A stretch of 64,000 nt of DNA. Origin: a virus (lineage: Duplodnaviria; Caudoviricetes). The stretch covers positions 128,001 to 192,000 of the IMG/VR virus record IMGVR_UViG_3300028591_000081; one strand, 5' to 3'. A program made the translations under genes and the position numbers. Below, in pieces: positions 40,163 to 63,649 of this stretch (position 1 is its first letter; every line of letters begins with the position of its first letter). Under the pieces are notes generated by a model that was not told the origin of the DNA, ran no database searches, and was given only the letters and a program-made list of their open reading frames with translations.

Positions 40163-41038
40163 CTATCTGAAACGCCGGATAGATAATCGTCTTCCCTCAT
40201 TCATACGATAGGCAACCGTGTCACGAACCCAGTCAGCAAGACCTTCTGCATCCTGAACGTTCTCCACAGTCTTAACGGCTTCATCATCCACATAGATAAC
40301 CATTGCAAGGGAACCCTTGTACGGCACAAGCACAACCGTAACCTGATGAGGCATTTTGTTCTTGTCCGAAAAATTCCCTGTATATGTGGCCAGAGCATCT
40401 TCGGCAAGAGCTACCGAATACACTTTGGTAAGGTCGATAATGTAATCGGCCCCAACGGACTGTACAGTAACCTCAACAGCTCGTGCGATGTTCTGCGCGG
40501 ACTCTCTCAAATTCTGATTCATCGGGGAAATGTTTTTGTCCAGCACATCACTGTCTTCACCAGTAGCCGAAGTATCCGAACGCTGAGACATTACATAGGC
40601 ATTAGACTGGTCTCGAAGGAAATCAAGAAACCCCTGTGCATCGATCCGGCAATTCAGTGACGGGGAGTACCCATCCATACCTTCACATCGCGTGATAATA
40701 CCATCATTATTGACATCCAATGTAATGACCAGAGCCTTGGTCTTGTCCGTAACATTAGATTCCAGAGTGTCATCGAAAGCCGTAAGTGTCCATGTCTCTG
40801 TACCATCTTGATGATGGACGATATCTAGGTCTGCACGGCTCCCGCATCCCGCCTGTGTAAGAATGCTGTCAATAACGCTCTCAAGAGCTTCACGGGTTTC
40901 TACATTCTCAAATATGTCGGAAGGTTTCCCGACTTCGAGATTTTCAGCTACGACCTCCATGTCGAAGTTTTCATACTTCGGAACACGGAATGCCGGTGCG
41001 ATTCGTCGGCCATCGCGGCCTGTAAGCGTATTACTCAT
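40163..41038 (-). CDS. Hypothetical acidic protein with basic N- and C-terminal peptides
   Basis: GGAGG RBS; leader ...RRIAPAFRVPKYE and tail NEGRRLSIRRFR. Confidence 0.75.
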   Translation of the reverse strand: MSNTLTGRDGRRIAPAFRVPKYENFDMEVVAENLEVGKPSDIFENVETREALESVIDSILTQAGCGSRADLDIVHHQDGTETWTLTAFDDTLESNVTDKTKALVITLDVNNDGIITRCEGMDGYSPSLNCRIDAQGFLDFLRDQSNAYVMSQRSDTSATGEDSDVLDKNISPMNQNLRESAQNIARAVEVTVQSVGADYIIDLTKVYSVALAEDALATYTGNFSDKNKMPHQVTVVLVPYKGSLAMVIYVDDEAVKTVENVQDAEGLADWVRDTVAYRMNEGRRLSIRRFR

Positions 41039-41050
41039 AGGCCACCTCCA

Positions 41051-41653
41051 TTACGCATTGGTATCACTGGAAGAAACCGTTGTACGCTCCAGACGGTCAC
41101 ACGAGAAACTGCACGTGATCTGTGTGAACCCGCCACCCGTACCCATGTTCGGGATATTGATGTTCGTCGGGAAAAGCCCAAAGACTTCCCACGAACGAAT
41201 AACGCTGGCGTCAGGGGCAAACACAAGAAGGGATGCCGTAGTTTTGTAATTCACGGCCAGACCCATGAGCTTGTCTCCATCGAAATTGTAAATAAGACGG
41301 AACCAGTCCAGAAGCATGTTCTGAATATCGTAACCGATACTGTCAATGCAGTTGATGGACACCTGACCACCCATAGTCGGGTTCGTTGCAATAAAGACCT
41401 GCTCATTACCACGTTTGATGCTCTGAGGAGTGACCGACAGGGCCGGTAAAGAGACAGACTGCACTGCAAGACGAATGATGTTGGAGTCATTTTGCGTAAA
41501 GGCACGTCGCGCTGAGTTCATCTTCTCAGGGAATGCCTGTGTAGGAAGGTTGATTACCAATTCCCAATGAGAGTCGCGTTGCGGTTCCCAGTTCGCATTG
41601 TCTGTAAAATGGGACGCACCATAATACTGGGATAATCTTACGTCACTAGCCAT
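41051..41653 (-). CDS. Tail tube protein (T4 gp19-like)
   Basis: WEPQRDSHWEL, VSLP..V, NYKTTASLLVFAPD..IRSWEVFGLFPTNI, ITCSFSCD; downstream of sheath. Confidence 0.85.
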   Translation of the reverse strand: MASDVRLSQYYGASHFTDNANWEPQRDSHWELVINLPTQAFPEKMNSARRAFTQNDSNIIRLAVQSVSLPALSVTPQSIKRGNEQVFIATNPTMGGQVSINCIDSIGYDIQNMLLDWFRLIYNFDGDKLMGLAVNYKTTASLLVFAPDASVIRSWEVFGLFPTNINIPNMGTGGGFTQITCSFSCDRLERTTVSSSDTNA

Positions 41654-41668
41654 AATGGTACCTCCTTA

Positions 41669-42721
41669 TTACTTAGCCGGTTTCGGATTTCCGGGGGCCA
41701 AGCGATGAATACGGAACCCGTTGATTCTGGATTCAGTAGCAATCACCACCTTGTGGTTCTTCGCATAAACACGAATATCGCTGGGATCTTCTGCTTCAGA
41801 AGACTCCGTAACGGTCTCGCTGATGTCAGGAAATTCTGCTGAATCTGCGGCCTGAATCGCCTGATTTGCTGAGGCATCGGGTTTAAGATCCAAGTCCTGA
41901 GGCGTCACCTGTTCAGGAGCAGGAATGTCGTCCTCATTTTTCTTCTTGCGCTCAGGAGATTTGGCCCACAGCATAGCCTCCCGGAATGCCTTGCTGGCCG
42001 AGTTGTCATCCGTGAAATCCTCAAATTCTTTGGTCTTGGTGTAAATCTTTGCGAAGGGCTGATCTCCGCATTCCACGAATACATCCACACCGGCATTGTA
42101 CGCCTGTGCACAGACCTTCATGGCGTCCTGCAAAGACTCAAACTCACCTGAGTATTTCTTACGTGTCGCCGCATGTTCACGAGTAATGCAGGACACCTTG
42201 TACAAACAGTCCTCTCCTTCATTCGCAGAAGCCTTGCAGATAGAAGCCACTTTGTGGACTTTTTCGGTCTTGGCCTTGCTTGATTTCAGGAACGTAATGC
42301 GATGAATGGAAACCTCACCATTCGATCCGTTCAACGCCTTCCCTTCAACACAGACCAAGTCTCCCTTTCGGACATGCTTTAGGATGATTTCCTTGGACTT
42401 GCCGCCCGTAGAGCAAATCCGTTCCAAAGTCTGATCTCCGACGCCGCTCGAATAGACCAGAGTAAGGACAACTTTTCGACCCTTCATCTCTGGGTCGGAT
42501 TTCACCCTGCCAATGATGATGGTGTACGACATCCCGTCCTCATTCGCGAGATCATCATCTGTTGCACCCATGGTCTTAGCCAGTATGTCAAATTCTTTCT
42601 GGGACTCTGCCTCAATCACGTCATCGGACAGAACGTTCTTTTCAAGATGACGACGGAACGAGTTGCGATACTCATTCTCACGATTACGCATATCCATGTT
42701 GCGCCAATTTTTGCGAATCAT
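41669..42721 (-). CDS. Hypothetical protein containing an SSB-like OB-fold
   Basis: TIIIGRVKSDPEMK...KHVRKGDLVCVEGK matches the SSB pattern; basic leader and tail. Confidence 0.55.
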   Translation of the reverse strand: MIRKNWRNMDMRNRENEYRNSFRRHLEKNVLSDDVIEAESQKEFDILAKTMGATDDDLANEDGMSYTIIIGRVKSDPEMKGRKVVLTLVYSSGVGDQTLERICSTGGKSKEIILKHVRKGDLVCVEGKALNGSNGEVSIHRITFLKSSKAKTEKVHKVASICKASANEGEDCLYKVSCITREHAATRKKYSGEFESLQDAMKVCAQAYNAGVDVFVECGDQPFAKIYTKTKEFEDFTDDNSASKAFREAMLWAKSPERKKKNEDDIPAPEQVTPQDLDLKPDASANQAIQAADSAEFPDISETVTESSEAEDPSDIRVYAKNHKVVIATESRINGFRIHRLAPGNPKPAK

Positions 42722-42756
42722 ATTTCCTCCAAAACTATGTATCTCTTAGTTGATGA

Positions 42757-42816
42757 GCTTGAAATGATTTTGGGCATCATCCCTCGTCTTCACAATTCGA
42801 TAGGTGATGCCCAAAA
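42757..42816. terminator. Hairpin after sheath gene
   Basis: TTTTGGGCATCA/TGATGCCCAAAA. Confidence 0.5.
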
Positions 42817-42822
42817 CACGGA

Positions 42823-45982: not shown

Positions 45983-46846
45983 TTAATGCCGCAACATAGT
46001 TCTCAGGTTTTGTGGCCACCCATCAATCGTATCGGTAATCTTTTCCCAATACTCACAAAGTTCGTCAGCGATCTCCTGAAGATTGACCATACTATCCAGA
46101 CGTTCAATCGTAGTCTTTAATTCATGCATAGCGTAATCAAAGGAGGATTCAAAAGCACCGTCCACACGATCCATCTCCTCAAGCATGTCAAGGAACGACT
46201 CGGTAGAAATCTTCCCACGTCCTTTCAGCATCTCTAGGTACTTAGGAAGATCAGAGTCCTCATTCAAATCGAAATCAATATCCGGCTCCAGAAACAAATG
46301 AGCGTCGCTTCCAGCAATGCGTGACTCGGAGGCATCTTCCAACTGATCAAGACAGGACATGATGCGGTCTTGATAATAAGCCACCTCCTCATTGTCCCGT
46401 TTGTGCTCCTGAACCCAATACCTGCACCCCCGAACATAGCTTACGAGACGATCTGCATCCTGAGAGGACAGAAAACTCCCTCTCTTCAAAGCCTCACGAA
46501 TTGTGTTCAAATCCGGATCGTCGTCGAGAGAATCATTGGCTTCCTCAAAAGCCTCGAACATCTGAACCATCTCGTCTTTCAGATCAGATTTTTCAGCAGA
46601 GGTAAGGAACTTCCTTCGAGATGTGAAAGACTTTTTTATGTACCCCATGGTCGTTAATACACTCTGGATGTATCGGTCGTTCAGTTTGATGTACAACTCA
46701 CCCAAATTGCGGAACAGACTCTCGGTATCCACACGGAAAACCTCACTGTTATCTGCGTACAGCCATTCCAAGAGGTCTTGAATCGGGTAGTCTCCAAACT
46801 GTTCATACTGTAAGGATTCGCAAATTCTACGATTGATTCTGAACAT
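45983..46846 (-). CDS. Hypothetical acidic protein with basic leader
   Basis: AAGGAAG RBS; MFRINRRICES. Confidence 0.75.
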   Translation of the reverse strand: MFRINRRICESLQYEQFGDYPIQDLLEWLYADNSEVFRVDTESLFRNLGELYIKLNDRYIQSVLTTMGYIKKSFTSRRKFLTSAEKSDLKDEMVQMFEAFEEANDSLDDDPDLNTIREALKRGSFLSSQDADRLVSYVRGCRYWVQEHKRDNEEVAYYQDRIMSCLDQLEDASESRIAGSDAHLFLEPDIDFDLNEDSDLPKYLEMLKGRGKISTESFLDMLEEMDRVDGAFESSFDYAMHELKTTIERLDSMVNLQEIADELCEYWEKITDTIDGWPQNLRTMLRH

Positions 46847-46894: not shown

Positions 46895-48751
46895 TTAGTC
46901 TCTTCCGTCATAGATGACATCTTCATAGTCATCAGGGTCTACCTCACGAATACTTCCTTCCTGTGCCCATGTATAAATACCACCATCGTGATAGCGGTAG
47001 ACATCCGCAAACAGGTCGGTCTCTTCCGTTCGGTACATCTCGTCATAGAACAGGTCTGCATTTTCTTTTACCAGCAGTTCACAAATTTCCTGATCATTGA
47101 GATTCTCAAGATTTTCAGGAATGGTGTCGAAGTATTTTTCAGGATCCTCACGAACCCATCCGGCCAGAATCTCTTCACGGAGTTCCGCTACGGAATCCTC
47201 TGGAACAGTAAGTCCGGGAGCATTCTCAGAACACCAGTTGGCCGCGATGTCCAGAGCCTCTCCTTCCCAAGGTGCCCAGACAAGCATCGTTGAAAGCTGA
47301 TAACCGGCTCCCGGCCATAGACCTACCAAATACAGATTACTGCCGTCCGAAGAATCATTGATGCACCCATAATCAGGGTCTTCGATGTTATTGCTCTCGA
47401 AACGACGTGACTTTCCATTCGCTTTCATCTTACGTATCGCCTTGGTTTCAACATAGTTACGGTTCACGGTATTACGAACACTGCCAGCATCAGCAGGATC
47501 GTTGTTCGCGATGACATCCAAAGCCTCACCAAATGAGGCACACGCACAACGAATGAGGTAACGAAGACTGTCTTCCTGATCCTGTACACCTGCCGTACAG
47601 AGGGCCGTAGGATAATATGTGTTGTCCACAAAGGAACATTCATAAGCACGACCTTTGCGTTTCACATAAGCCTTGAAGGTCTTTTCCACAGCATCAGAGA
47701 CTTCCTGACGGGATGCCGAGAAACCTTCCATCTTACGAACCGTAACGGCCACACAGAAGGCGTTCAGGTCATAGTCCCCTTCCGGATCATCCAAGCTACC
47801 AACATACGGTACACAAATCTGAACTACGAAACGAGCCTTCCACGGATTATCACCAGTCGAGCCAGCACAATCCAGAGCAATTCCGCCTACCATACAATGA
47901 GCGGTATCCAGACCGTAATCTTCCTGAGAAGGATCTCCATCCCATTTGTCAATCCAACGGCGGCCCGTAGGATTGACTGCAAGACCTCCGAACCCAGCTT
48001 TCAAGGTTTCAACCAGCGTTGCGTCATCCGTACTGGATTCTTTAGACATGGAGACGTTGGTGTTCGTTGAGGACTTCAAACGGTTGACGAACTTCAATGC
48101 CTCGTCCTCAGCAATCACACGGTACGCGCTACGTTCCCAGTCCTGACGGTTGCCCGGACGACTCTTCTTTGCCGCCTTGTCATCAGGTGCGACACCGGCG
48201 ATGCGTTTCTTGGCTTGAAGATAAGCACTGTCAGGGTCTTCGAGGTCTTGGTATTTCTTGTTATGGAAATGTGCACCGGCCCCGTGATCGAGGCTTTTGG
48301 AATCGACATCCCCAAACCCTGTCTGTGTAGAGGCAATAAGGTCTGCAACGCCGGGATAATCCTCAGGAAGTCCAAGCTGTTTAATGGTAGCCAGCACGTC
48401 CAGAGCCTTTGCAACCTCAGAATCATCCGTAAGATCGCGAAGAAGATCCACAATCTCGTCATCGGAAAGAATGTCGTTCTTTTTGCACGCGATGAGGATC
48501 TTCTTCAACCGGCTGACTGCGGACTTTTTGTTTGAAAAGTCATCCCCAACGTCTACCACACCTGATGCCCCGATACCACGACCGGTCTTGATGAAACGGA
48601 TCAGAGCCTTGATTTCTTTGTCAATCTCACGCTGACCATGACTACCAACGATGGAAAGATTGAAGATCTTCTGATCAATCACATCCCCATCCTCATAGGA
48701 CTCAAACCGACGCGCTCTCAGGCGTCCACGACTGCATGTGTGTCTAATCAT
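46895..48751 (-). CDS. Hypothetical multidomain acidic protein with basic leader and linker
   Basis: MIRHTCSRGRLRARRFES; internal ETKAIRKMKANGKSRRFES. Confidence 0.75.
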   Translation of the reverse strand: MIRHTCSRGRLRARRFESYEDGDVIDQKIFNLSIVGSHGQREIDKEIKALIRFIKTGRGIGASGVVDVGDDFSNKKSAVSRLKKILIACKKNDILSDDEIVDLLRDLTDDSEVAKALDVLATIKQLGLPEDYPGVADLIASTQTGFGDVDSKSLDHGAGAHFHNKKYQDLEDPDSAYLQAKKRIAGVAPDDKAAKKSRPGNRQDWERSAYRVIAEDEALKFVNRLKSSTNTNVSMSKESSTDDATLVETLKAGFGGLAVNPTGRRWIDKWDGDPSQEDYGLDTAHCMVGGIALDCAGSTGDNPWKARFVVQICVPYVGSLDDPEGDYDLNAFCVAVTVRKMEGFSASRQEVSDAVEKTFKAYVKRKGRAYECSFVDNTYYPTALCTAGVQDQEDSLRYLIRCACASFGEALDVIANNDPADAGSVRNTVNRNYVETKAIRKMKANGKSRRFESNNIEDPDYGCINDSSDGSNLYLVGLWPGAGYQLSTMLVWAPWEGEALDIAANWCSENAPGLTVPEDSVAELREEILAGWVREDPEKYFDTIPENLENLNDQEICELLVKENADLFYDEMYRTEETDLFADVYRYHDGGIYTWAQEGSIREVDPDDYEDVIYDGRD

Positions 48752-50299: not shown

Positions 50300-51076
50300 A
50301 TGAAAACCAACATGAACACCCGTACAAATCTTTTCACTATCCTCATTATAACCCTTTTGGCATTACTGACGGCTACCGCTTGCAACAATGATCCCTGCGT
50401 CCAGTTCGACAGGATGACCGCAGATACCTCAGGTAAGTACAGTTCTCAAGAAATCCGAGAAACAGAAAAGGCATGTCAGACGATAGTGAACCAAGACATC
50501 AAGGGAATGTCCGAAAGACAGGTCTATGAGAAGTTCTGTTCCATGAAAGAATGGGACTCCGGAGGCAAGCTGACTGAAGTACGTAGAACCTCATGTGAGC
50601 AGTTTTACACTCTGAAATTCAGTGAACATCCAGATTACGTTCACTATCTGTGTACCCCTAAAAACGACATAGGTATTCCTGCCATCATCTCCAGAGGGAG
50701 TCAAGCATACAACTTCTCGTCAGTAGAGTTCCAGACCATTTACACCGGAAACCTTCCGATGCCGTACATGAAAATCACTCTGGATGGCAAGTATTACGGA
50801 ACGGTTCCTGAGACGATGAATCTCACCCTGACCAACGAACGGTATGCCAATATGCGTATGGATAAGATCACATGCACAGCCAATGGAAAGGACTCCAGAG
50901 TGGCGTATGACCAAGACCGTGTGCAATGTGAAATCATCATCAAGGAAGGATTCAGCGACGACCCGGAGAAATACGGAATCAAGGCCAGAGAAGACGAGTC
51001 TCTCAGAAGCATGGCCGTAATCATCGGAAACGTCACCAACTGTGAAGACCTCAAACCAAAAGACTGGAAGAGATGA
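50300..51076 (+). CDS. Putative lipoprotein
   Basis: Basic N-terminus, hydrophobic core, lipobox-like TATAC. Confidence 0.7.
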   Translation: MKTNMNTRTNLFTILIITLLALLTATACNNDPCVQFDRMTADTSGKYSSQEIRETEKACQTIVNQDIKGMSERQVYEKFCSMKEWDSGGKLTEVRRTSCEQFYTLKFSEHPDYVHYLCTPKNDIGIPAIISRGSQAYNFSSVEFQTIYTGNLPMPYMKITLDGKYYGTVPETMNLTLTNERYANMRMDKITCTANGKDSRVAYDQDRVQCEIIIKEGFSDDPEKYGIKAREDESLRSMAVIIGNVTNCEDLKPKDWKR

Positions 51077-51207
51077 GACTCAGAACAAACTTCTCTGTGT
51101 GAAGACAAAAACGGCCTCTCTGACAACGATTTCGGATGTACCCTTACTACCATAGTGATGTAAAAGAAAACGCGTCAGAGGGGCAGTTTTATGTCCTGTA
51201 TGAAGAA

Positions 51208-52167
51208 CTAAGATTGCGAGTCCTTGTACCGATAATCTTCAAGACTCCATGCAATGACATTCATTGTATGTTCAAGGTCAAGGAGGGCCTTCTCGATGGC
51301 ATCACAAATCGCAAAGGTTCCTTTTCGATTTTCTGCATGATCAACGGTTATCTCTGATACAAACCCATTGTCCTCAAGACGATCAAAGATTTCCTGAATG
51401 GAATCAAACCGATCCACATAAATCTTGTAGACAGGCTTGATAAAGGACACAGTAGCCGAATACGAGAGTCCTTGGTTATCAGGATTCGATTCGAAGTTGC
51501 CGCAAGACACGGTAATCAGAGTGACGACCTTCTGGTTCGGAACCTTCGAAAGAAAATCTTCATACTCACACTTCACAAGGAATTCGTGATCACTGAAGTC
51601 AATCGAAGTCACCTCGTAATGACGCGACAGAATGCGTTGATTGATGACCTTTACCTTATCACCACCCGGTCGGAAGATGTTACGCCCCTCCTCCTCTTCT
51701 CTTACCATGTTACGAGTTCTGAATTTAATCATACGCCCCTCCTCCTCTTCTCTTACCATGTTACGAGTTCTGAATTTAATCATACGCCCCTCCTCACTCT
51801 CTTCTTCTCCGCCTCCTTCTTCGGGCTGTTCTGGTTCCGTTTCAGGAGCCACTTCACCACCACCTTCCGCATTGTCTTCACCAGTACTGGTTTCAGGCTC
51901 AACTTCCTCGCCGCCCTCTTCGGATTCTTTTTCCGCTTCATCCAGATCGATACCAATCCCCTCAAGGGCTTGCTCAATCCGTTCGATGACGGCCTCTCCT
52001 CGCTCCACACGATCCGACAGAGTAGAGACTAGTTCCTGCAACTGAGCAAGAACAGCATCGAACCCCATCGAAACACGATCTGCGGGCTGACTATCCTCAT
52101 TCATCGGAACACGCGTAATGCTCTGCACGAACTCCGTAGAGGCTATTTTACATTTAGGTGTAATCAT
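51208..52167 (-). CDS. Acidic coiled-coil protein (prohead core-like) fused to a second domain via a duplicated basic linker
   Basis: Coiled coil, Glu-rich tract, (MIKFRTRNMVREEEEGR)x2. Confidence 0.65.
   Translation of the reverse strand: MITPKCKIASTEFVQSITRVPMNEDSQPADRVSMGFDAVLAQLQELVSTLSDRVERGEAVIERIEQALEGIGIDLDEAEKESEEGGEEVEPETSTGEDNAEGGGEVAPETEPEQPEEGGGEEESEEGRMIKFRTRNMVREEEEGRMIKFRTRNMVREEEEGRNIFRPGGDKVKVINQRILSRHYEVTSIDFSDHEFLVKCEYEDFLSKVPNQKVVTLITVSCGNFESNPDNQGLSYSATVSFIKPVYKIYVDRFDSIQEIFDRLEDNGFVSEITVDHAENRKGTFAICDAIEKALLDLEHTMNVIAWSLEDYRYKDSQS
51681..51795. repeat. 51-bp in-frame tandem repeat (2.25 copies)
   Basis: TACGCCCCTCCTCCTCTTCTCTTACCATGTTACGAGTTCTGAATTTAATCA repeated exactly. 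Confidence 0.95.
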
Positions 52168-52193
52168 AATCTGTCTCCTTTAGCCTGAACCCA

Positions 52194-53306
52194 TTACCGG
52201 ATTCTTCGGTTCTGAGACTTTCTCGACTCCAAACCCATATAACGTCGTTCGATGTCGTTATCGGTAAGGATGTCTGCACAAAGAAGAATGTCTCTGGCCA
52301 GCGAGTCGTACCCACCACGGAAATCGAAGAAGGACAGGTCAGACATACCGTACATCTCATCACCGTATTTCCTGAGAAGGCCCTGAATTTCACCCTTATG
52401 ATTTGCACAGAGCAGTTCTGCCTTACGATTTCCGGCTTTCCACGCCTCTTTCAGATCATCTATCAGATCCTTACTCATGTCGCTACGAAGGGTATCAAGA
52501 CTCTCATATCTACACTTCCTGCTCTCCTTGGAGTTCTTCAGATCATAGATAGCATTGGCAAGATCTCCAGCAAAGGACTTCATTTGACGCTGGACGGCAC
52601 TGAAATCAGGACCAAGCCACCGTTTCCAAGAAGCCGTCCAAGAACCTCCATCCATCTCACGATTGGCCCGCTGTACCTGATCTTGTACAGAGGAAGCCTG
52701 TTTCAAGAGACGGTCTTTCGAGACGCCCTGCCCTTCCAGTTCGCACAACTTGTTGAAGTTGGTGCAAATAAGAATCCCTGTCTCTGCGGCATCAGGGATG
52801 CCCCACTGATTGCGTTTGGCCTGCATAGCTATATCTGCCTTATCCCAAAGAGCGTCAGGAACAAACAGATCCGCAAACTTCAATGCTTTTGAACCGGCTT
52901 CCTTCTTGAGGGGTCGGTTCGAAGGTCTTTTTGCCTCAAGAGCACATTCGGCACCGCATCCATCCAGAGCCACAACCTTGTCCAAAAGGTTTTTGTCCAG
53001 ACAACGGAACTTGCCAATAAGGATGTAATCACCACCCTCACGTGTAGGGTATGCAAAACAGGAAACCCAGTTATTGGTAATCTCAACCTCACAGAAGGTA
53101 CCGTCAATCATGGCGTCTTCATTGTCGGATCGAATCGCAATAAAATTGTCTCCCGGTTCTTCTTCAATAATTTCCCAATCGCCTCGGGCGGCAATGTTCA
53201 AAGCCTGACATACCTCTTCGGCAACAGAACGTCGATATTCGGCATCGCTCAGGGCAGACTCGTGTTTGAGGGTATAGGAATTACGTTTGTTTGTAGGACG
53301 TATCAT
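52194..53306 (-). CDS. Hypothetical multidomain protein with basic leader, linkers and tail
   Basis: MIRPTNKRNSYTLKHES; EAKRPSNRPLKKEA; ESRKCRYES; ESRKSQNRRIR. Confidence 0.75.
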   Translation of the reverse strand: MIRPTNKRNSYTLKHESALSDAEYRRSVAEEVCQALNIAARGDWEIIEEEPGDNFIAIRSDNEDAMIDGTFCEVEITNNWVSCFAYPTREGGDYILIGKFRCLDKNLLDKVVALDGCGAECALEAKRPSNRPLKKEAGSKALKFADLFVPDALWDKADIAMQAKRNQWGIPDAAETGILICTNFNKLCELEGQGVSKDRLLKQASSVQDQVQRANREMDGGSWTASWKRWLGPDFSAVQRQMKSFAGDLANAIYDLKNSKESRKCRYESLDTLRSDMSKDLIDDLKEAWKAGNRKAELLCANHKGEIQGLLRKYGDEMYGMSDLSFFDFRGGYDSLARDILLCADILTDNDIERRYMGLESRKSQNRRIR

Positions 53307-53317: not shown

Positions 53318-54061
53318 CTAGTCTCGACGGATTTCAAAGATACCGTCATCTGTCTGAACGAACTCTAAGTCCATCTGGATGTCACGGCCAAATGCTTCAT
53401 AATCGAAGTAGCGTTCCTGATTCTCTTTACCGACGCCATCCCAACCGAGCTGATCCACGACTTCACGACCGATTTCTTCATCATCGGCACGGTCATCACC
53501 ACACCAGTACTCTCCGGCGGTCTCAGGATCTTCCGATTCCATAGGATAGTACTCCAGACGAATATCCCGTCCATACGCCTCATAATCGAAGTAATTCTCA
53601 ACGTTCCTCAACTCACTGAATCCTATGGAATCCACATAGTAGGCACCGATCTCCTCATCCATCTTATGGGACAGTCTCTCATCGCTAATCTTCACCACGG
53701 AATCATTTGCGATGAGGTCTAAAGCGTCACGAAAGTCACCAGAGTATTCCATCGCGGCCTTGAACTCTTCTTCCTTGTCGTCGTCCACGATACTCTCAAG
53801 GGCCTCGGCATACTCATTGACATCATCGAGACTCATGTATTCACCGAGTCCATCCAGATCCACCCAGTCATAGTCCGTGTCCCAATCGGTGAAAAACCAC
53901 TCTTCATAGACAGAACCGTCTCCACGATCTTCCCCAATACCTACCTTCTTCAGACTGTCTTTGAAGTCGTCCTCATCACACGGAAAGGAAACCCACACAT
54001 AGTCCAAGTCGCCTTCGTTATACTTGCCGAGATTCGTCAATGCACCACGTAATACGTCCAT
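53318..54061 (-). CDS. ardA: Antirestriction protein ArdA-like (extended, 247 aa)
   Basis: TNLGKYNEG.L..WVSFP, YEEWFFTDWD, LGEYMSLDDVNE, YFDYEA(Y/F)GRDI twice; very acidic. Confidence 0.88.
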   Translation of the reverse strand: MDVLRGALTNLGKYNEGDLDYVWVSFPCDEDDFKDSLKKVGIGEDRGDGSVYEEWFFTDWDTDYDWVDLDGLGEYMSLDDVNEYAEALESIVDDDKEEEFKAAMEYSGDFRDALDLIANDSVVKISDERLSHKMDEEIGAYYVDSIGFSELRNVENYFDYEAYGRDIRLEYYPMESEDPETAGEYWCGDDRADDEEIGREVVDQLGWDGVGKENQERYFDYEAFGRDIQMDLEFVQTDDGIFEIRRD

Positions 54062-54706: not shown

Positions 54707-55087
54707 TCATTCCATAGAATGGCCTGAGTAACGATATTTTGAACACCTACGGACTCGTTCAAGAACTTCACTGTGTTTTCCAAACCGATACAGAATTATA
54801 GCGTCATCAAGTATTTCGTAAAGCAACACCCTATCTCCTTGAGGATGACAATCTCTTACATTCACAGCATCCTTTAACCCTCTAACACGGCCTTGTAAAG
54901 GATGGTCATCATACATAGCAGGAAGGGGTTGTCTGTTACCGATCATTCTGACGACGGTGAAGAGAGCTTCAAGGGTGTTTCTGTCCCTATTCTCATTATA
55001 GGATTTCAAATCGGTCTTAAACTGAGAAGATTTGAGCAAATTGAGACTGACCACTCCCACATGACCCAAAAATTGTTCCCACCTCAT
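54707..55087 (-). CDS. yafQ: YafQ/RelE-family mRNA interferase toxin
   Basis: SSQFKTDLK, LP..Y.DHPLQG, RDCH..GDRVLLY, RFGKHSE. Confidence 0.85.
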   Translation of the reverse strand: MRWEQFLGHVGVVSLNLLKSSQFKTDLKSYNENRDRNTLEALFTVVRMIGNRQPLPAMYDDHPLQGRVRGLKDAVNVRDCHPQGDRVLLYEILDDAIILYRFGKHSEVLERVRRCSKYRYSGHSME

Positions 55088-55305
55088 CAGCTCTCTCCGT
55101 CAGCATAGTACTCGGACAGTATGTGTGCACGTTCTGAAAAAGCCTCAAGGGTCTCTTTGTTAGGAACAAACTCATTACCATCCATATATCCTACACAAGG
55201 ATGTCCGTCAGGGTCTTTGGAAGATTCGCAAACCCGTGTTTTTTGACGAACCCTAGAAATGCTCTCTTCTGTAATGTTTTTCCTCTTCCGTATAATCATG
55301 CTCAT
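55087..55305 (-). CDS. Putative antitoxin (DinJ/RelB-type C-terminal motif) with basic leader instead of RHH domain
   Basis: PNKETLEAF motif; TGATG coupling to toxin; N-terminus MSMIIRKRKNITEES. Confidence 0.6.
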   Translation of the reverse strand: MSMIIRKRKNITEESISRVRQKTRVCESSKDPDGHPCVGYMDGNEFVPNKETLEAFSERAHILSEYYADGES

Positions 55306-55403: not shown

Positions 55404-55416
55404 CACCAAAGTAGAG

Positions 55417-57198
55417 TTATCTGCCCACTTCTTTGTCAATGAGATCCAGTGCCCAGTTCACGATGTCTGAACAGAGACTGCGCATGTCGTCCTCCCAGTC
55501 ACCAGACCATGTGCATCTAAACTCTTTGTCCTCAATGGACTCAAAGTCACCGTCCACAATCTCCTCAAGTTCCACGTTGTAGACTGCCGTAGCCCGTCCC
55601 GATAATCCGGATTCACGAACATCCAAAGAGAACATTCGATTGTCTTTGGCACCAGAGTCGGTTTCAATGGTGTATGTCCAGCGCGTCAAATCCGAATCCA
55701 ACTGATACGACACATCATACGAGCCGTAGATCTCCTGACAGGAATCGTCGATAATAGTCTCAAGGGAGACCTCCACGGCGTCGTCTTCCACAGTAAGTTC
55801 TTCAAAACGACGCATCCTCGACTCACCGACTTTCACATGGGCATCACCTTTTTTGAGCAACTGATTCGTGGCATACGCAACCAAATCCAGTCCCTTGATA
55901 AGGGAGGCTTTAGTGATTGGCTTACCTGCGTCGATAGCTTTCTGTGCCTTGTCATCCTTTTTCAGGGCCTGACAGAGGAAACGGTAACACCGTTTGTCTG
56001 CGCAATAAAACCCATACCCATAGGCACGCGTAAAGCTGAGACCCATGTCCTGAAGCATCTGAACAATCTCCTGCTGATCCCACCCAGCCTCTGTAAGCTC
56101 AACGATCTGCCCTTTCACCTTAATGAGCACTTTGTCCGGGAAAGTACGTTCCTCCGCCTCATAGAGTCTTACCCTGTTACGAATAATCATACGTTTTTCC
56201 TTTATCCAAGAATCACCAGTACGTAGAGCGTCGAAATCCACAATGGCTTTCGACCCTTCATAGAGGTGCAAATTCCCTTCGTCATCGAGAACCCCACCAT
56301 AGGCACATACCCCGGCCAAATAAGCCGCATCCTGAGAACGTGTTCTGCGATAGGTATCCTTGATTGCGCTGACCATAGGTGTATCATGCCAATAATAATA
56401 CATTCCTGACACCACACCGTCCAGCTCAGGTTTCGGAGAAGTCTTGTCGTAATACGTATTCAGAAGGATCTTGTGTGCCTCCTTGTCCGATACGATGTGG
56501 GTCGATCCCGGTCCACCAAAGATAAAGTCCCAAACATCGATCCGTTTTATACCACTGAGTTTAGCCAAGACAGCACATCCAAAAGCAATCAGGCACTGGG
56601 CATCGCTTTCCGGCATGGATTTTATCCATGAAAGATTGCGTGCCTTTTCTGCAAATTCGTCCAACGAACGGCCCTTGTTGGCCTGTGCAAACGTTACCAT
56701 CTTCACGCCATTGTCCCGTTCGTTGACACCGTGGATTTTCTCGACAGCTCTATGCTTCATGTCACGACGCCCATGTGCAGATTCTTCAACTGACGAAGAC
56801 AGGGCTTTGGACAGTGTCACAAAGTCATCTTCCATCTTGGAAGACAGGTCACGCAACTCATGCGCCACCTTCCCAATATCCCCAGCCTTCAGCGGAGAAT
56901 ACACCATTTCATCATAAGAACGGACATTTTCATCGCAGAAGGCGATCAGGTCTTCCAGCGTTTCGATTCCCTGATTTATCGCATCTTCAAGAAATCCGTT
57001 CTGCAAGCACTGTCTCTTGTAATCGACAAACTCCACATGGAATTCATCCCCAGAGTCAGAAGAGACTCTGTCTACGCGAATCTGGCCCACGGCATCACCA
57101 AGACTGGGTACGATGTAAAACACATCGTCATCCACGCCGTCCAGTGGAACTCCAAGACTCTCCAGACGGTCATACAACCGATCAAATAAATCTTCCAT
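55417..57198 (-). CDS. Hypothetical multidomain protein with three basic linkers
   Basis: EESAHGRRDMKHRAVEK; EKRMIIRNRVRLYEA; ESRMRRFEE. Confidence 0.75.
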   Translation of the reverse strand: MEDLFDRLYDRLESLGVPLDGVDDDVFYIVPSLGDAVGQIRVDRVSSDSGDEFHVEFVDYKRQCLQNGFLEDAINQGIETLEDLIAFCDENVRSYDEMVYSPLKAGDIGKVAHELRDLSSKMEDDFVTLSKALSSSVEESAHGRRDMKHRAVEKIHGVNERDNGVKMVTFAQANKGRSLDEFAEKARNLSWIKSMPESDAQCLIAFGCAVLAKLSGIKRIDVWDFIFGGPGSTHIVSDKEAHKILLNTYYDKTSPKPELDGVVSGMYYYWHDTPMVSAIKDTYRRTRSQDAAYLAGVCAYGGVLDDEGNLHLYEGSKAIVDFDALRTGDSWIKEKRMIIRNRVRLYEAEERTFPDKVLIKVKGQIVELTEAGWDQQEIVQMLQDMGLSFTRAYGYGFYCADKRCYRFLCQALKKDDKAQKAIDAGKPITKASLIKGLDLVAYATNQLLKKGDAHVKVGESRMRRFEELTVEDDAVEVSLETIIDDSCQEIYGSYDVSYQLDSDLTRWTYTIETDSGAKDNRMFSLDVRESGLSGRATAVYNVELEEIVDGDFESIEDKEFRCTWSGDWEDDMRSLCSDIVNWALDLIDKEVGR

Positions 57199-57895: not shown

Positions 57896-57948
57896 GATAC
57901 CTCCATATCCTTTCCAAACTACACTCTACCTACCTGTCCTAATTTGAT

Positions 57949-59315
57949 ACGACTCGCGAGATTTAGCCCGTTGGTAAGGCGAGCAATTATTCTTGCATAA
58001 AGAATAACTATTTGTTACCTATATGTCTGGGTGGTTAGTCCGACGGGATGAAAAGTGAGTAAGCCTCTCACCCACCACCCTCTAAAACAAAAGGCACGTA
58101 TTCAAGGCTAAATACCAGTATGACTTACAAAGCGTTCAAGTACAGACTCTATCCTACTGCACCACAAGCAGAGAAAATCAACCAGAACATTGGTTGTGCT
58201 AGGTTCGTCTATAACCAACTGCTTGATGACAGGATAAAGGTCTATAAGGAAACAAAGCAAAGGTCAAAGAAGACCTACTGTGACTTGAAGAAAGAGTACG
58301 CTTTCCTTAAAGAAGTTGACAGTCGTGCATTGCTTCATGCAAGAGAAAACTTGGACGCGGCATACGACAAGTTTTTCAAAGAGCCAAGTACAGGCTTTCC
58401 GAAGTTCAAGGCAAAGCATAAGTGTCGCTGGAGTTATACCACGGACAACAACAGTGATGCTGTCAGATTTGATGGTAATCGCCTCAAACTGCCAAAAATC
58501 GGGTACGTCAAAGTTGTTGAACACAGACGGCATGAAGGACGCATTCTAACAGCAACGATAAGTCAAGAACGAAGTGGCGAGTATTATGCTTCTGTTTTAT
58601 GCGAAATTGAACCGTCTGAACCATTGCCAGTCACTGATAAGGTTATCGGAATCGACCTAGGATTACATGATCTCATTGTTTGCTCGGATGGTGAAAGAGT
58701 AGCGTCGCCAAAGCATTTCCGCAAATCAGAACAGAGACTGGCAAAACGACAACGAGCTTTCTCAAGAACTCAGAAAGGAAGCAAGGGACATGAGAAAGCT
58801 CGTTTGAAAGTCGCCCGGTGTCATCAGAAAATAAAGAACCAGAGGAATGATTTCCTCCAAAAGTTGTCCACCAAACTCATTCGCGAAAACCAAGTGATTT
58901 GTTTGGAAGACCTGTCTGTCAAAGGCATGGAACGAAACAAGAAACTGGCTAAGAGTGTATCTGATGCTAGTTTTTCAAAGTTCGTTTCGATGCTTGAGTA
59001 CAAGGCAGAATGGTACGGACGCGAGATAATCAAGATAGATCGTTTTTATCCTAGCACACAGCTTTGCAATGGTTGTGGATACAAGAATGAGTCTATTAAA
59101 GGCTTGAAAGGATTGAAGTTTAGAGAATGGATTTGTCCTGAATGTGGAGAAGTCCATGATCGAGATTTGAACGCCTCAAGAAACATCCTCAAAGAAGGAA
59201 TAAGAGTATTGAACCTACGGAACGTGGGGGATAGCAAGTTTACTGTGCATCACACTGCTTTAGTGTGATGTGCTTGCACTTGAAGCCCACCCGCTTTATC
59301 GGGTGGGTAGTTCAC
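57949..59315 (+). mobile_element. IS200/IS605-family element (tnpB only, IS1341-type)
   Basis: TTGAT at 57944-57948 precedes left end; right-end hairpin CCCACCCG/CGGGTGGG then TTCAC (59311-59315); no tnpA. Confidence 0.8.
58120..59268 (+). CDS. tnpB: TnpB RNA-guided endonuclease
   Basis: KAFKYRLYPT, IGCARFVYN, GIDLGL, ICLEDL, PSTQLCNGCG, WICPECG..HDRDLNASRNI. Confidence 0.95.
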   Translation: MTYKAFKYRLYPTAPQAEKINQNIGCARFVYNQLLDDRIKVYKETKQRSKKTYCDLKKEYAFLKEVDSRALLHARENLDAAYDKFFKEPSTGFPKFKAKHKCRWSYTTDNNSDAVRFDGNRLKLPKIGYVKVVEHRRHEGRILTATISQERSGEYYASVLCEIEPSEPLPVTDKVIGIDLGLHDLIVCSDGERVASPKHFRKSEQRLAKRQRAFSRTQKGSKGHEKARLKVARCHQKIKNQRNDFLQKLSTKLIRENQVICLEDLSVKGMERNKKLAKSVSDASFSKFVSMLEYKAEWYGREIIKIDRFYPSTQLCNGCGYKNESIKGLKGLKFREWICPECGEVHDRDLNASRNILKEGIRVLNLRNVGDSKFTVHHTALV

Positions 59316-59526
59316 TCAAAGCCAGCCACAAAGCAAACCTGAAAGGAAGACTGACCGAACCCTTCTGTCTCGGTTTTGCCGTGAACACACATGCAGAAAA
59401 AGACTCATAGACATACACTCTCGGGCCACGAAAATCCTTATCCTTTCGTACACAATAATGCTGATATTTCTTCAGCTTTCTACGCTGTTTATGCCTAGGC
59501 AAGGTAGTATAAGAGAGCATAAGCAC
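59296..59526 (-). CDS. Small basic protein whose 3' end is altered by the IS insertion
   Basis: GAGG RBS coupled to upstream GT gene; removing the IS restores ...WLALNQIRTGR-stop. Confidence 0.45.
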   Translation of the reverse strand: MLMLSYTTLPRHKQRRKLKKYQHYCVRKDKDFRGPRVYVYESFSACVFTAKPRQKGSVSLPFRFALWLALSELPTR

Positions 59527-59527
59527 C

Positions 59528-60409: not shown

Positions 60410-60431
60410 CGTATCCTCCCATTTCAAAAAG

Positions 60432-60465
60432 AAAAGCCCATGCATAAGGTTCATGCATGGGCTTT
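60432..60465 (-). terminator. Intrinsic terminator
   Basis: AAAGCCCATGCAT/ATGCATGGGCTTT with T-tract on minus strand. Confidence 0.75.
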
Positions 60466-60494
60466 CGATATAGAGGTTTTTGACAGAAGAAAGG

Positions 60495-61883
60495 TTACTT
60501 ACGGACGCGTCGGAAACGCTTTCTGGACTCAGCAGGAATGAACCTGCCTTCTCCCGGGAGACCTATACCTACATGACGCTTCGCACGGTCCAACACATCC
60601 CAAATCAGGCTGTTGTGTGTATCACTGATGGCCGCGTTCTCAAAATCGACAAGATCATCCAGAAGTTGTGCAAGTTTCTCAAAGGACTTCAGGAATACCA
60701 CCGCATCGTCATTATCCACCATAACGAACTGGTCATTAAGCTCATTCAGGTAGTCTCGAAGTACTTCAAATGACCACGAATCGCCGGGCATCTTCCAGTT
60801 CACATCAAGGTCATCGTCATAGAGAGCATGAATGCTCTTCTCCAACTGAATCATCTCATAGACCATGGAGTCCATCTTTTGTGCGATGTAATCATACCCA
60901 CGGGCAATCTGTTCTGCGCGAGCAATGTCGGAATCCTTATCCAAATCCCAGAAGGTTGGACTCACATCGTTCGTGAATGCCTCATCCATCCTGTCAACAA
61001 AGTCAAGAATCTTCTCCACAGAGGACTGAATGGAATCTTTGTTACCAAAGAGGTCTTTACCGTTGTACCCAGTCTTCTTGGCAACCCCAGCTTCCTGACG
61101 GATAGAATTACTGCACGCTTTCCAGTCATTGATGAGCTGATCAGAAACCAGTGCGTATTTCTTGTAGTTTCCGAAATACTGTTCCCAGTCCTGAGGCTCC
61201 ACACCCTCGTTGCGTCTTCCCCTGTTACCTCGTTTTCGCCCCTCAAACTCGCTACGCAGGTCTCTGGAAATCTCGTACCGAGCATCATCCCACTCATCAG
61301 ACACACGATTGATTTCTTCCTGAATCGTGTCTCGAATCAAGGACTCCATCTGAGCATCCGAACGAAGTTTCAACGGCCCGCGTTCCTCAAAACACAGATT
61401 TAGCGGAATCGTAATGCTGTCAGCCCACAATGTGGTTCCTGAGTCATTATTCAGAGCCACCGACAGAAAAACATGGGTGGGATACAGACCCAACTGTGAA
61501 TTACGACCGCCTCCGACGTGTAACACACCACCGGAAAGACGCGCAAAATGTCGGTTCAAGTTGCCTACCGTAGCACGGAACAAACTCTCACCTTCCGAAG
61601 AATCACCGCTGACGAAACCACGGATATTGGCAACGGACAGATAACGTCTGGCACTCTCACAGGTATCGCCAAGATCACAGATGTCGAGCATCCGTTTCAT
61701 ATAGGAGATGAATCCTCCTGCGATGGAAGAGATAACTGACGAAGACATGAGTGCGGCCAAGCTGATACCAAGAACGGAACTGCAATATGTCTGGAAACGC
61801 ATGTCTAGCTTCTCGGACATATTGTATTCACTGTGTGCTTCAAAACGTCGTCGTAGGCTTGTATTTTTATGATGAACGATCAT
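60495..61883 (-). CDS. Hypothetical two-domain protein with basic leader, linker and tail
   Basis: MIVHHKNTSLRRRFEA; EFEGRKRGNRGRRNEG; AESRKRFRRVRK; GGAGGAG RBS. Confidence 0.75.
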   Translation of the reverse strand: MIVHHKNTSLRRRFEAHSEYNMSEKLDMRFQTYCSSVLGISLAALMSSSVISSIAGGFISYMKRMLDICDLGDTCESARRYLSVANIRGFVSGDSSEGESLFRATVGNLNRHFARLSGGVLHVGGGRNSQLGLYPTHVFLSVALNNDSGTTLWADSITIPLNLCFEERGPLKLRSDAQMESLIRDTIQEEINRVSDEWDDARYEISRDLRSEFEGRKRGNRGRRNEGVEPQDWEQYFGNYKKYALVSDQLINDWKACSNSIRQEAGVAKKTGYNGKDLFGNKDSIQSSVEKILDFVDRMDEAFTNDVSPTFWDLDKDSDIARAEQIARGYDYIAQKMDSMVYEMIQLEKSIHALYDDDLDVNWKMPGDSWSFEVLRDYLNELNDQFVMVDNDDAVVFLKSFEKLAQLLDDLVDFENAAISDTHNSLIWDVLDRAKRHVGIGLPGEGRFIPAESRKRFRRVRK

Positions 61884-61900
61884 AGACTCCTCCAAAATCA

Positions 61901-63649
61901 TTATCTCATGGGCTTTCTGGCATTGCGACGAAAACTTTCCTGAGCAGGGAACCATGTATCGGCCTGCGACACAAATTCCTCAAAATCGGACATGCTGACT
62001 CCCAAATCTCTGAAACGTTCTGTGTCGATGGAATCCTTGTGCATCAAGAGATCGTAATCTGGATCCGTCTTGATCTGTTTGGAAAGTTCCTTCTGACAGG
62101 CATCCATGTAGTCTTTCATGGAGGTCACGCAAGACTCGATCTTATCCGCTATTTGCGACAGAACACCAGAATAATCAGAAAGATCCAGTTCATAGTCGGT
62201 TTCTTCCTCAGCGTTATAAGGGTATGAAAGGGAAGACTTGAACTCCTCAACATCCTCGAATCCATCCTTTGCTACGGTTTGAAGGCGTTGTGTCGCCCAA
62301 ACTGCCATCTCCCCGATCCAACGATGATGCTCGGCATAGAACACGCTTTGCTTAATGCCCCACGAAACCACCTGTTCCACAGGAAGCTGTTTGAGGGTTT
62401 TAAGCGAGACTTCAGCCTGTTTTGCCCTTCCAACGATACGCACCGAAAGTTCTGCAAGGTCTTTTAAGGAATCCTTTGAAACACCGCGCTGATCAAGCAT
62501 GTCATAAAGATCTGAATACACGGCATCACGCAACTGAACCGCCAGCTCCTTATTACTCACCTGAGCATCTCCAAGACTAATTAAAAATCCCACCTCGGAA
62601 CGATCTTTAGACGCAAGTCCAATAAACACTGCTGGAGAGTCACTGGCAAGATCGTCCATGCACTGGAACACCTGAAGGTTTTTAGAAACAAAGAACTTGG
62701 AAAGCTCCTTGAGAAGATTCGGATTGAACAGACCCATTCCGTCTTCCGTCTGGCATACAAGAGATCCGTCTTCCGTCAATGGAAGATCCAGTCCCTTATA
62801 ACTGTCCGCTACGGAGACCCAGTTCCGTTCGTCAAGCACAAAAGCAAACCTCTCAAACATTTTCCCACCGTCCACGGCATTCAGGGTCTTCAAATCCTGT
62901 GAAATATCATTCGTGGTGGCATAGAGATAATTCCCCTGCGTAACAAACTGATACTTCCCGATACGACCAGAACGTATGAAGGAGTTTTTCTTAGCGTAAG
63001 CCTGAAGTTGCTTGGTCGTCATCTTCTCAAGACGACGTTTTCTGGCTTTGGCGGCAGGATGTTTGCTCTCATACTTCCATTCCCCTTCAATGAGGAAAAT
63101 GTTGTAATACACGCCACCCACTTCTTCGGACTCCGTGTGACCTTCAATGTCCAGCTCGTGTCCGTATCCATAAACTTCCCACAGCTCTTTGCAGAAGGCT
63201 TCACGGTCAATGACTTCCATATCCCAAAGTTCGGAAATGGAATAATTGTCTTCCACCCACTCATAAATCTCGTCGTCATCGTCCGGCGCATCGTCACGGT
63301 CATTTTCCGCCAACCATGCATCAAGAACAGCATCGGAATTCCATAAATCGGTTCGCTCAGCCATACGGCACAAGTCCGGGTCATGCTCAATCATCGAACC
63401 GTCAGTGAATGTGTCGAGGAAATGGGCAGTGGCTTCTCGCTCCGCTTCTGAATCGGTCATAACCCAATACACATTCCCACTGAATGTAACTTCGGTAACG
63501 GGGCCGCTAAAACCATCGACCGTACTGACATCAACCATGTCCGGGTCTGCACCAAAGAAGTTGATGACGGCCTGTCTACGGTCTTCGTTAGTCGAAGATT
63601 CAAACCGTCTGGATTTTCTCTCGAAATGTTTTCTTTCACGACGAAGCAT
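61901..63649 (-). CDS. Hypothetical multidomain acidic protein with basic leader, linker and tail
   Basis: MLRRERKHFERKSRRFES; YESKHPAAKARKRRLEK; QESFRRNARKPMR. Confidence 0.75.
   Translation of the reverse strand: MLRRERKHFERKSRRFESSTNEDRRQAVINFFGADPDMVDVSTVDGFSGPVTEVTFSGNVYWVMTDSEAEREATAHFLDTFTDGSMIEHDPDLCRMAERTDLWNSDAVLDAWLAENDRDDAPDDDDEIYEWVEDNYSISELWDMEVIDREAFCKELWEVYGYGHELDIEGHTESEEVGGVYYNIFLIEGEWKYESKHPAAKARKRRLEKMTTKQLQAYAKKNSFIRSGRIGKYQFVTQGNYLYATTNDISQDLKTLNAVDGGKMFERFAFVLDERNWVSVADSYKGLDLPLTEDGSLVCQTEDGMGLFNPNLLKELSKFFVSKNLQVFQCMDDLASDSPAVFIGLASKDRSEVGFLISLGDAQVSNKELAVQLRDAVYSDLYDMLDQRGVSKDSLKDLAELSVRIVGRAKQAEVSLKTLKQLPVEQVVSWGIKQSVFYAEHHRWIGEMAVWATQRLQTVAKDGFEDVEEFKSSLSYPYNAEEETDYELDLSDYSGVLSQIADKIESCVTSMKDYMDACQKELSKQIKTDPDYDLLMHKDSIDTERFRDLGVSMSDFEEFVSQADTWFPAQESFRRNARKPMR

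Follow-up and report, generated by a model that had tools for sequence, protein, structure and literature searches.

Arginine-rich, glutamate-bounded peptides at the ends and domain borders of acidic proteins in an uncultured jumbo phage: module junctions and candidate prohead-protease sites

Locus and carrier proteins

The stretch of DNA analysed here (the window; 64,000 nucleotides) comprises bases 128001-192000 of a single 227,618-bp contig of an uncultured jumbo phage (Caudoviricetes; IMG/VR record IMGVR_UViG_3300028591_000081), and its region 40163-63649 encodes a series of otherwise dissimilar proteins that share short, Arg-rich peptides bounded by Glu. These peptides occur at N-termini (leaders), between domains (linkers) and at C-termini (tails). 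They had been pointed out in an earlier note on this DNA, and every leader, linker and tail quoted there was found in the minus-strand open reading frame (ORF) to which it had been assigned. The pattern is thus present in the region for which it was described; it is, however, not confined to it, since approximately 19 proteins, most of them acidic, carry strong examples genome-wide. Ten of these carriers are encoded in region 40163-63649, g202, g203 and g204 belong to a head module outside the window, and g002, g045, g069, g073, g081 and g090 are located elsewhere in the genome. Positions given below refer to the window unless they are marked as genome positions.

The gene set consists of 212 calls made by codon-usage score, with start codons picked by the strength of the Shine-Dalgarno (SD) sequence. 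An SD match of 5-mer or better precedes 60 of the 212 first starts, compared to 89 of 3625 internal in-frame ATG, GTG or TTG codons. The region is transcribed from the minus strand, starting with g177, g176 and a glycosyltransferase gene. Next come a plus-strand TnpB insertion, a gene similar to those of head-tail adaptors, g172, g171, a YafQ/RelE-like toxin gene, the ArdA gene, g168 and g167, and then by an epimerase and a lipoprotein gene, both on the plus strand. Behind the lipoprotein gene, g164, g163, g162, the tail sheath gene, g160, the tail tube gene, g158 and the gene of a 1285-aa protein complete the order. The carriers of this region are as follows.

61901..63649, minus strand: g177, 582-aa two-domain acidic protein; leader 63599-63649, linker 63029-63067, basic tail 61904-61936
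60495..61883, minus strand: g176, 462-aa two-domain protein; leader 61839-61883, linker 61209-61241, tail 60498-60527
55417..57198, minus strand: g172, 593-aa four-module protein without leader; basic stretch 56740-56787, linker 1 56161-56196, linker 2 55804-55821
55087..55299, minus strand: g171, 70 aa; two consecutive Glu-bounded basic peptides (55225-55299), then a 44-aa acidic domain
52194..53306, minus strand: g168, 370-aa three-module protein; leader 53259-53306, linkers 52902-52934 and 52506-52523, tail 52197-52226
51208..52167, minus strand: g167, 319-aa acidic protein; tandemly duplicated linker 51700-51789, N-terminal "leader" doubtful
46895..48751, minus strand: g163, 618 aa; leader 48701-48751, linker 47399-47446, then a 167-aa C-terminal module
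45983..46846, minus strand: g162, 287-aa acidic protein; 10-residue leader 46817-46846
41669..42721, minus strand: g160, 350 aa, between sheath and tube genes; basic N-terminal region 42641-42721, acidic residues also within
40163..41038, minus strand: g158, 291-aa acidic protein, between the tube gene and the tape-measure-sized gene; C-terminal basic tail 40166-40195

Statistics and composition of the peptides

For a genome-wide count, a basic segment was defined as a maximal Asp/Glu-free stretch of no more than 25 residues with at least four Lys+Arg and at least 35% Lys+Arg. All 212 proteins were searched, and 200 within-protein residue shuffles served as control. Segments with Glu on both sides were found 39 times, compared to 19 ± 4.2 in the shuffles, while Asp/Asp-flanked segments numbered 22 (17 shuffled) and segments of mixed Asp/Glu flanks 32 (35 shuffled). 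Basic C-terminal tails after Glu were observed 11 times (1.0 ± 1.0 shuffled) and after Asp twice, and the closing Glu is followed by Ser, Ala or Gly in 24 cases (6.8 ± 2.7 shuffled). The TnpB-like gene (58120-59268, plus strand), an opposite-strand insertion in the middle of the carrier cluster, also contains many Glu-flanked basic segments. As a TnpB-like protein is a basic nucleic-acid-binding protein, these count as false positives of the loose peptide definition.

The same test was applied to a related phage, referred to as G001 (IMG/VR contig IMGVR_UViG_3300028888_000085, 98.6 kb), whose prohead protease and capsid protein are 54% and 68% identical to those studied here. This relative was reached only with an alignment as query; scans of IMG/VR with single proteins (g177; the capsid protein) gave no matches. 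Its 41 ORFs hold 17 Glu/Glu segments (4.4 ± 2.2 shuffled) and four leaders (0.1 shuffled), with Ser/Ala/Gly after the closing Glu in 11 cases (1.5 shuffled). Listeria phage LIS04 has the protease-capsid arrangement found here and the nearest cultured capsid protein, with 27% identity, and its 41-kb structural region contains 0 Glu/Glu segments in 11.6 k residues. Hence, the feature is lineage-specific and general neither to proteins nor to phages with a T4-type protease, the latter having been considered and rejected on the same count.

The peptides comprise 6-20 residues without internal Asp or Glu and contain approximately 31% Arg and 14% Lys, even though the proteome as a whole has more Lys than Arg. 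ER/K single-helix linkers were dropped as an explanation because internal Glu is absent. With an arrow marking the border between P1 and P1', the overall consensus reads x-x-Glu↓(Ser/Gly/Arg)-(Arg/Lys)...(Arg/Lys)-Arg-Arg-x-Glu↓(Ser/Ala/Gly). The downstream border follows (Lys/Arg)-Arg-Arg-x-Glu↓Ser, with Arg at P4 in 21 of 35 sites, Arg or Lys at P3 in 24 of 35, and mostly Asn, Tyr, Phe, Leu or Arg at P2, Asn being commonest at the cargo sites. The upstream border follows x-x-Glu↓(Arg/Ser/Gly)-(Arg/Lys).

A start-codon artefact was rejected, as the leader ATGs are preceded at the right spacing by SD sequences such as GGAGG or AAGGAG, and homologues of g163 (618 aa) and g177 begin at the same Met. 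Five copies of R-R-F-E-(S/A/E), all in region 40163-63649, use different codons for Arg, Phe, Glu and Ser, so the signal lies at the protein level. The C-terminal tails, moreover, terminate at a stop codon upstream of the SD sequence of the next gene. With differing codons and tails that stop before the next SD, an origin from a DNA repeat, a promoter or a translated ribosome site was rejected as well. Inspection of the sheath, tube, neck, dUTPase and epimerase N-termini bore out that they are free of the pattern. Two of the proposed instances did not hold: the N-terminus at 52167 is weak as a leader, with two Lys only and no conservation, and the basic stretch at 47642-47683 falls inside a conserved domain that is collinear in homologues. 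Judged from these comparisons, the peptides are under selection at the protein level.

A second, distinct C-terminal motif is shared by the unrelated proteins g137 (881 aa) and g089 (348 aa), whose near-identical, Glu-preceded tails x-R-L-P-x-G-I-(K/R)-K-K-Y-I are encoded at window 7388-7426 (minus strand) and genome 91999-92037 (plus strand), respectively.

Module borders in homologues and in a related phage

Each folded module, usually acidic, is preceded and/or followed by an Arg-rich peptide, and the homologues of the carriers, some of which form clusters with hundreds of member sequences, differ from each other at these peptides. Three kinds of g177 homologues were found. Proteins of 387-391 aa consist of the second domain only, with a basic leader of their own and a similar basic tail. 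Homologues of 639 aa (P0005-P0020) possess the g177 leader, first domain and linker and continue directly with the first domain of g176, after which another linker, a new domain and a tail follow. The third kind is shorter and carries other second domains, the break being at the linker. What in the phage studied here is a tail, a stop codon, 17 bases including an SD sequence and a leader is therefore a single linker in relatives, and R-R-F-E-(Ser/Ala) directly before the g176 domain is kept in both fused and split forms. Some of the fused g177 homologues have no Met in their linker at all.

In g172, some homologues begin inside the first basic stretch and others at the linker-1 Met, which is invariant in the alignment. 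Three forms lack module 2; the downstream end of the deletion lies in linker 1 in all three, and the upstream end 3 to 16 residues beyond the first basic stretch. Other variants lack module 1, and in some homologues the last module is followed by a new basic peptide and a fifth module. In linker 2, the stretch G-E-S-R-x-R-R-F-E does not vary among 9 sequences with identities as low as 72%; its conservation equals that of the domain cores. A 63%-identical homologue of g163 differs in the lengths of leader and linker and keeps the R-F-E↓(Ala/Gly) ends; it also has a basic tail, which g163 lacks.

For comparison with G001, the carriers were cut at their basic peptides and each module was searched separately. 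Twelve modules found a match, and all 12 matches end within approximately 3 residues of a basic peptide in both genomes, which agrees with the expectation of the earlier note that the linkers are domain boundaries. The g202 module and the second g203 module form one protein in G001, as do g204 and the last g203 module. A five-module G001 polyprotein of 1085 aa combines the main g163 domain with the g162 domain, the latter as its last module, right after a basic peptide; the C-terminal module of g163 is a separate gene there. The g202 tail corresponds to the first half of a linker in G001. The first module of g168 matches residues 29-141 of a G001 protein whose other modules follow after a basic peptide, and the G001 homologue of g167 consists of the N-terminal module only.

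Structure prediction, proposed earlier as a check on whether the linkers are disordered, agreed with these borders in part. In the AlphaFold2 (AF2) model of g177, residues 18-190 have a predicted local distance difference test (pLDDT) score of 63-88, and leader (1-17) and linker (191-211) are near 30. In that of g172, module 3 (351-449) is modelled with confidence, and the two linkers appear as coil of low confidence. Confident domains thus stop at leaders and linkers; most of both models, however, is of low confidence, as domain B of g177 and modules 1, 2 and 4 of g172 had shallow alignments.

As the alignments show, related phages fuse, split, delete and exchange modules exactly at the Arg-rich peptides. 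It follows from fusion and splitting at these sites that an internal linker is interchangeable with a tail, a stop codon, a ribosome-binding site and a leader. The peptides are hence almost certainly selected module junctions and ends. Whatever the mechanism behind it, "genes" of this kind are strings of independent modules, which should be searched and folded module by module.

Individual carriers and their neighbours

The modules themselves gave no Pfam or PHROG matches, and almost all are of unknown family. A fold search with domain A of g177 returned a best PDB Z score of 5.5 and otherwise weak viral matches, and a search of the ESM Atlas with g163 matched only its own kind; the modules are thus unassigned, which does not make their folds new. 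Of the cargo identities suggested earlier, the SSB-like domain (in g160) is not borne out, the OB/SSB signal being weak and below threshold (Pfam E 0.0085), and DNA-mimic cargo is a guess, with ArdA itself carrying no tag. The SprT-like call for the protein at 22028 was right, and g147 is a candidate cargo protein or a candidate alternative processing enzyme.

22028..23365, plus strand: g147, SprT-like zinc metalloprotease (Pfam SprT-like E 1.6e-6); short basic N-terminus closed by Glu
53318..54061, minus strand: g169, ArdA antirestriction protein, no tag; first gene of an operon, followed by g168 and g167

The YafQ/RelE-like toxin gene (54707-55087, minus strand; Pfam E 2e-17) lies directly behind g171, which takes the upstream position of an antitoxin. 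No recognisable DNA-binding antitoxin fold was found in g171; the two may be a toxin-antitoxin pair with basic tags on the antitoxin.

Some linkers contain an internal ATG after an SD-like purine run (g167 twice, g069, g172 linker 1). In g167, the linker is a perfect tandem duplication of a 17-residue unit (51700-51789, minus strand) with GGAGG and ATG in each copy. Such sites fit an origin of linkers by loss of a stop codon and may serve as internal translation starts. Internal starts are not a general mechanism, though, because of the fused forms without any linker Met.

Head module, prohead protease and putative capsid propeptide

The head module is located outside the window at genome 202729-212863 on the minus strand, in the order SprT-like protein, g205, g204, g203, g202, HExxH protein, 530-aa protease and Gp23-type major capsid protein. 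Three carriers (g202-g204) and a SprT-like protein are accordingly encoded close to the protease, and the G001 homologue of this SprT-like protein has a strong leader. A prohead protease of the Glu-cleaving type (T4 gp21 family, S77), which the earlier note had left to be located, adjoins the capsid gene.

genome 204215-205807, minus strand: g200, S77 prohead protease, 530 aa, just upstream of the Gp23-type capsid gene
genome 205913-207268, minus strand: g201, 451-aa HExxH protein, between g202 and the protease
genome 201291-201737 (L008:11291-11737), minus strand: g197, 148-aa paralogue of the protease core, 31% identity over 80 residues

Matches of g200 were obtained to Pfam PF03420 (E 1.4e-13), PHROG 207 (E 2e-38) and the T4 gp21 structure 5JBL (E 5.9e-5). 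Its protease part comprises the first 226 residues or so (PHROG match 7-226, Pfam S77 match 5-182), in which His84 and Ser141 lie in aligned G-H-P and I-S-A-R stretches, in the columns of the T4 catalytic pair; g200 is thus an S77 protein with its catalytic pair in place. The C-terminal extension of 300 residues holds four basic...Glu↓Ser sites and, by analogy, is probably a scaffold part. In LIS04, the same fusion of protease and extension precedes the capsid gene.

The capsid protein is of the Gp23 type, with the Gp23 domain starting from residue 75. Approximately 60 residues are followed by Arg-x-x-(Asn/Thr)-Glu↓(Ser/Gly), and another 15 or so precede the Gp23 domain. A site with the motif of the carriers at the end of a putative capsid propeptide, for which the earlier note had suggested a search, is conserved as basic-x-x-(Asn/Thr)-Glu↓(Ser/Gly) in 5 of 7 aligned sequences, including relatives of 75%, 37% and 36% identity; the site is also kept in the G001 capsid. 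It does not extend to a 25%-identical relative, which has Gln in that column, or to LIS04, which aligns differently. The propeptide is predicted to end by a cut at that Glu.

In the paralogue g197, Thr occupies the column of the catalytic Ser, and the fold is incomplete at its N-terminal end. G001 has g197 as well. A TGGTGCTG promoter is found upstream of g198, which precedes g197. The HExxH protein g201 is absent at the same place in G001, where unrelated minus-strand genes are found. The portal gene (30% identity to the LIS04 portal) and the large terminase gene were located at genome 65796-67400 (minus strand) and 50815-52836 (plus strand), respectively, approximately 140 kb from the capsid and protease genes; the structural genes are thus widely scattered.

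A possible role in cargo processing and the alternatives

As to what the junction peptides do, we lean, by a modest preference, towards regarding them as S77-protease sites on capsid-cargo polyproteins, which would be processed by the gp21-type protease g200. Glu, not Asp, stands at the borders and is followed by Ser, Ala or Gly well above the shuffles in two genomes, and the form of the capsid site matches the cargo sites with Asn as their commonest P2 residue. Considering the protease, the capsid site and the interchangeability of fused and split forms, cutting at both Glu borders would be the simplest account, and strict Glu borders fit the S77 family and the predicted capsid propeptide site. 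Accepting this, g200 would cut after both bounding Glu inside the prohead and release single modules as mature products, from which the basic peptides have been removed; after cutting, it would not matter whether modules had been encoded fused or apart. Leaders and tails at protein ends link nothing, so the peptides probably have the additional task of bringing the modules into the prohead. They would then also be loading signals by which acidic modules enter the head during assembly, like the capsid targeting sequence of T4, and the modules would travel with the DNA into the next cell.

More tentatively, and with considerably more doubt than the processing of capsid cargo, a position-independent cargo-loading code for T4-type heads may be proposed, in which any module flanked by a peptide, whether N-terminal, internal or C-terminal, is loaded and trimmed at both Glu borders. 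The injected set could evolve by cassette exchange, and the Arg-rich peptides, once released, might remain within the head and act as counter-ions to the DNA.

Several observations weigh against capsid cargo. Promoter mapping assigns the TGGTGCTG class to the operons of g164 (followed by g163 and g162), ArdA g169 (followed by g168 and g167), g171 and g045. The same class precedes the DNA polymerase gene and other replication genes, and it is not found before head genes.

49131, 54168 and 55403, minus strand: TGGTGCTG boxes of the replication type, before g164, ArdA and g171
50184 and 54180, plus strand: TGGTGCTG boxes before two plus-strand genes; 54168 and 54180 are back to back

Given this placement, expression of several carriers probably precedes that of the structural proteins or is separate from it. 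Early expression is also a feature of the T4 internal proteins, and we regard the promoter class as a caveat to the cargo assignment, not as its refutation. The preference for Arg at P3/P4 is unlike that of T4 (Leu/Ile-x-Glu) and of phiKZ/SPN3US (small-x-Glu). Furthermore, one domain of g002 matches a PHROG and a LIS04 gene labelled "tail protein"; Pfam gave nothing useful on the LIS04 protein concerned. If g002 is indeed a tail component, it would count against cargo, since a protease confined to the prohead would not meet it. The genome also encodes other candidate proteases, namely two SprT-like proteins, the HExxH protein g201 and the truncated S77 paralogue g197, and no scaffold protein of acidic character emerged as a partner of the basic tags.

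Among the alternatives, it appears rather unlikely that the peptides stay uncut and act as permanent Arg-rich arms for nucleic-acid binding or tethering, comparable to the arginine-rich motifs of phage N proteins, or as charge-balancing spacers whose borders simply mark tolerance to insertions and deletions. Such arms would account for the excess of Arg over Lys in a proteome richer in Lys, for the disorder of the peptides in the AF2 models and for the co-expression of some carriers with replication genes. They leave unexplained, however, why Glu and not Asp forms the borders and Ser/Ala/Gly follows, why terminal leaders and tails share one grammar with linkers, how a linker can be replaced by tail, stop and leader without loss, and why the putative capsid propeptide ends in the same way.

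Less likely again is processing outside the head by a SprT-like zinc protease, by g197 or by a host protease, with modules that act in the infected cell instead of serving as virion cargo. Enzymes of the SprT/Spartan type are activated by DNA and act preferentially on stretches that are disordered and basic, and both SprT-like genes (g147 and g206) could supply such an activity; to our knowledge, however, no Glu rule exists for them, while strict Glu borders suit the S77 family and the capsid propeptide site, and the SprT-like proteins themselves carry leaders, as cargo would. Although g197 aligns to the protease core and stands behind a TGGTGCTG promoter like several carrier operons, it is without the N-terminal part of the fold and, having Thr in the Ser column, without the nucleophile. 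A cytoplasmic role would be in line with the early/middle-type promoters of four carrier operons and with the "tail protein" domain of g002. Both of these alternatives explain the Glu borders, the small residue behind them and the match to the capsid propeptide less well than processing by g200 does.

Chance, miscalled starts or a DNA-level repeat (promoter or ribosome site) translated in frame, for which the SD-like runs and ATGs inside some linkers could be quoted, are highly improbable given codons that differ between copies, leaders with SD sites of their own, tails ending before the next SD, shuffle statistics that hold in two genomes, peptides conserved across homologues and fused forms lacking a linker Met.

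If processing and loading by g200 hold true, a phage lineage abundant in gut and rumen metagenomes displays a linear code for head loading and cut sites. Virion cargo and mature protein ends would then be predictable from sequence alone in uncultured phages, the diversification of injected proteins would find an explanation in module exchange at the junctions, and a short tag for loading T4-type capsids, differing from that of T4, would be at hand.

Comparison with known systems

A search of the literature accessible for this analysis found no phage junction peptides of this kind described; three known systems share parts of the design. T4 gp21 and the proteases of giant phages cut after Glu and prefer Ser at P1' (PMC10052503, PMC9026906). 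In T4, internal proteins IPI-III and Alt carry an N-terminal targeting sequence that is removed by gp21 (reviewed in PMC9026906; Mullaney and Black 1996 as cited in PMC10052503). Foreign proteins can also be loaded by means of this sequence (PMC10052503, PMC9026906). The notion of a portable delivery tag, which the earlier note had put forward, already exists for the T4 sequence, which is portable in T4. S77 protease, Gp23 capsid family, cleavage after Glu (predicted for the phage studied here) and a short N-terminal tag on unrelated proteins are common to both phages. The tag described here, however, is Arg-rich, while that of T4 is hydrophobic/acidic, and Arg takes the P3/P4 positions in place of Leu/Ile; among the 35 sites, only Glu at P1 and a small P1' residue agree with the Leu/Ile-x-Glu grammar of T4. 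Moreover, peptides of this type also stand between domains and at C-termini here, the predicted cargo consists of acidic modules in contrast to the basic internal proteins of T4, and the modules are joined in polyproteins whose make-up varies from one relative to another.

In phiKZ, 201phi2-1 and SPN3US, propeptides of head and ejection proteins are cut by gp175/gp245 at (Ser/Ala/Gly or Ala)-x-Glu (PMC10052503, PMC5694885), with gp245 of SPN3US preferring Ser at P1' (PMC10052503). These are likewise jumbo phages in which several head and ejection proteins are processed by a Glu-specific code with Ser after the cut, and some propeptides are cut more than once. The pieces removed there are N-terminal and 20-254 residues long, in addition to the C-terminus of the protease itself, whereas short basic junction peptides, cargo with C-terminal tails and exchange of modules at the cleavage sites have not been described for them. 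The small P3 residue and long N-terminal propeptides of the phiKZ/SPN3US grammar are replaced here by a basic P3 and by peptides of 6-20 residues in all positions. Additionally, the capsid is T4-like and not phiKZ-like, the nearest cultured relatives being of the SP-15/LIS04 type with approximately 27% identity.

Polyvalent proteins, finally, are multi-domain proteins whose genes lie close to virion genes and whose domains are shuffled; their delivery together with the DNA is a prediction (Iyer et al. 2017, PMC5512222). Their release has been predicted to depend on embedded zincin-like or assemblin-like peptidases (PMC5512222). That study defines the class by catalytic domains, and the word "linker" is absent from it (PMC5512222). 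SprT-like/zincin proteases and antirestriction genes in the same neighbourhood are a feature in common, and so is the architecture of several unrelated domains per polypeptide that are shuffled between relatives. The modules found here are, in contrast, small and almost all of unknown family, and they are joined by a linear junction code. Instead of a zincin- or assemblin-like peptidase embedded in the same protein, the SprT-like domains g147 and g206 are separate genes and the S77 protease is fused only to its own extension. Taken together, the system is best read as a variant, inverted in charge and independent of position, of three known designs, namely the T4 capsid-targeting/gp21 system, the propeptides of giant phages and polyvalent proteins.

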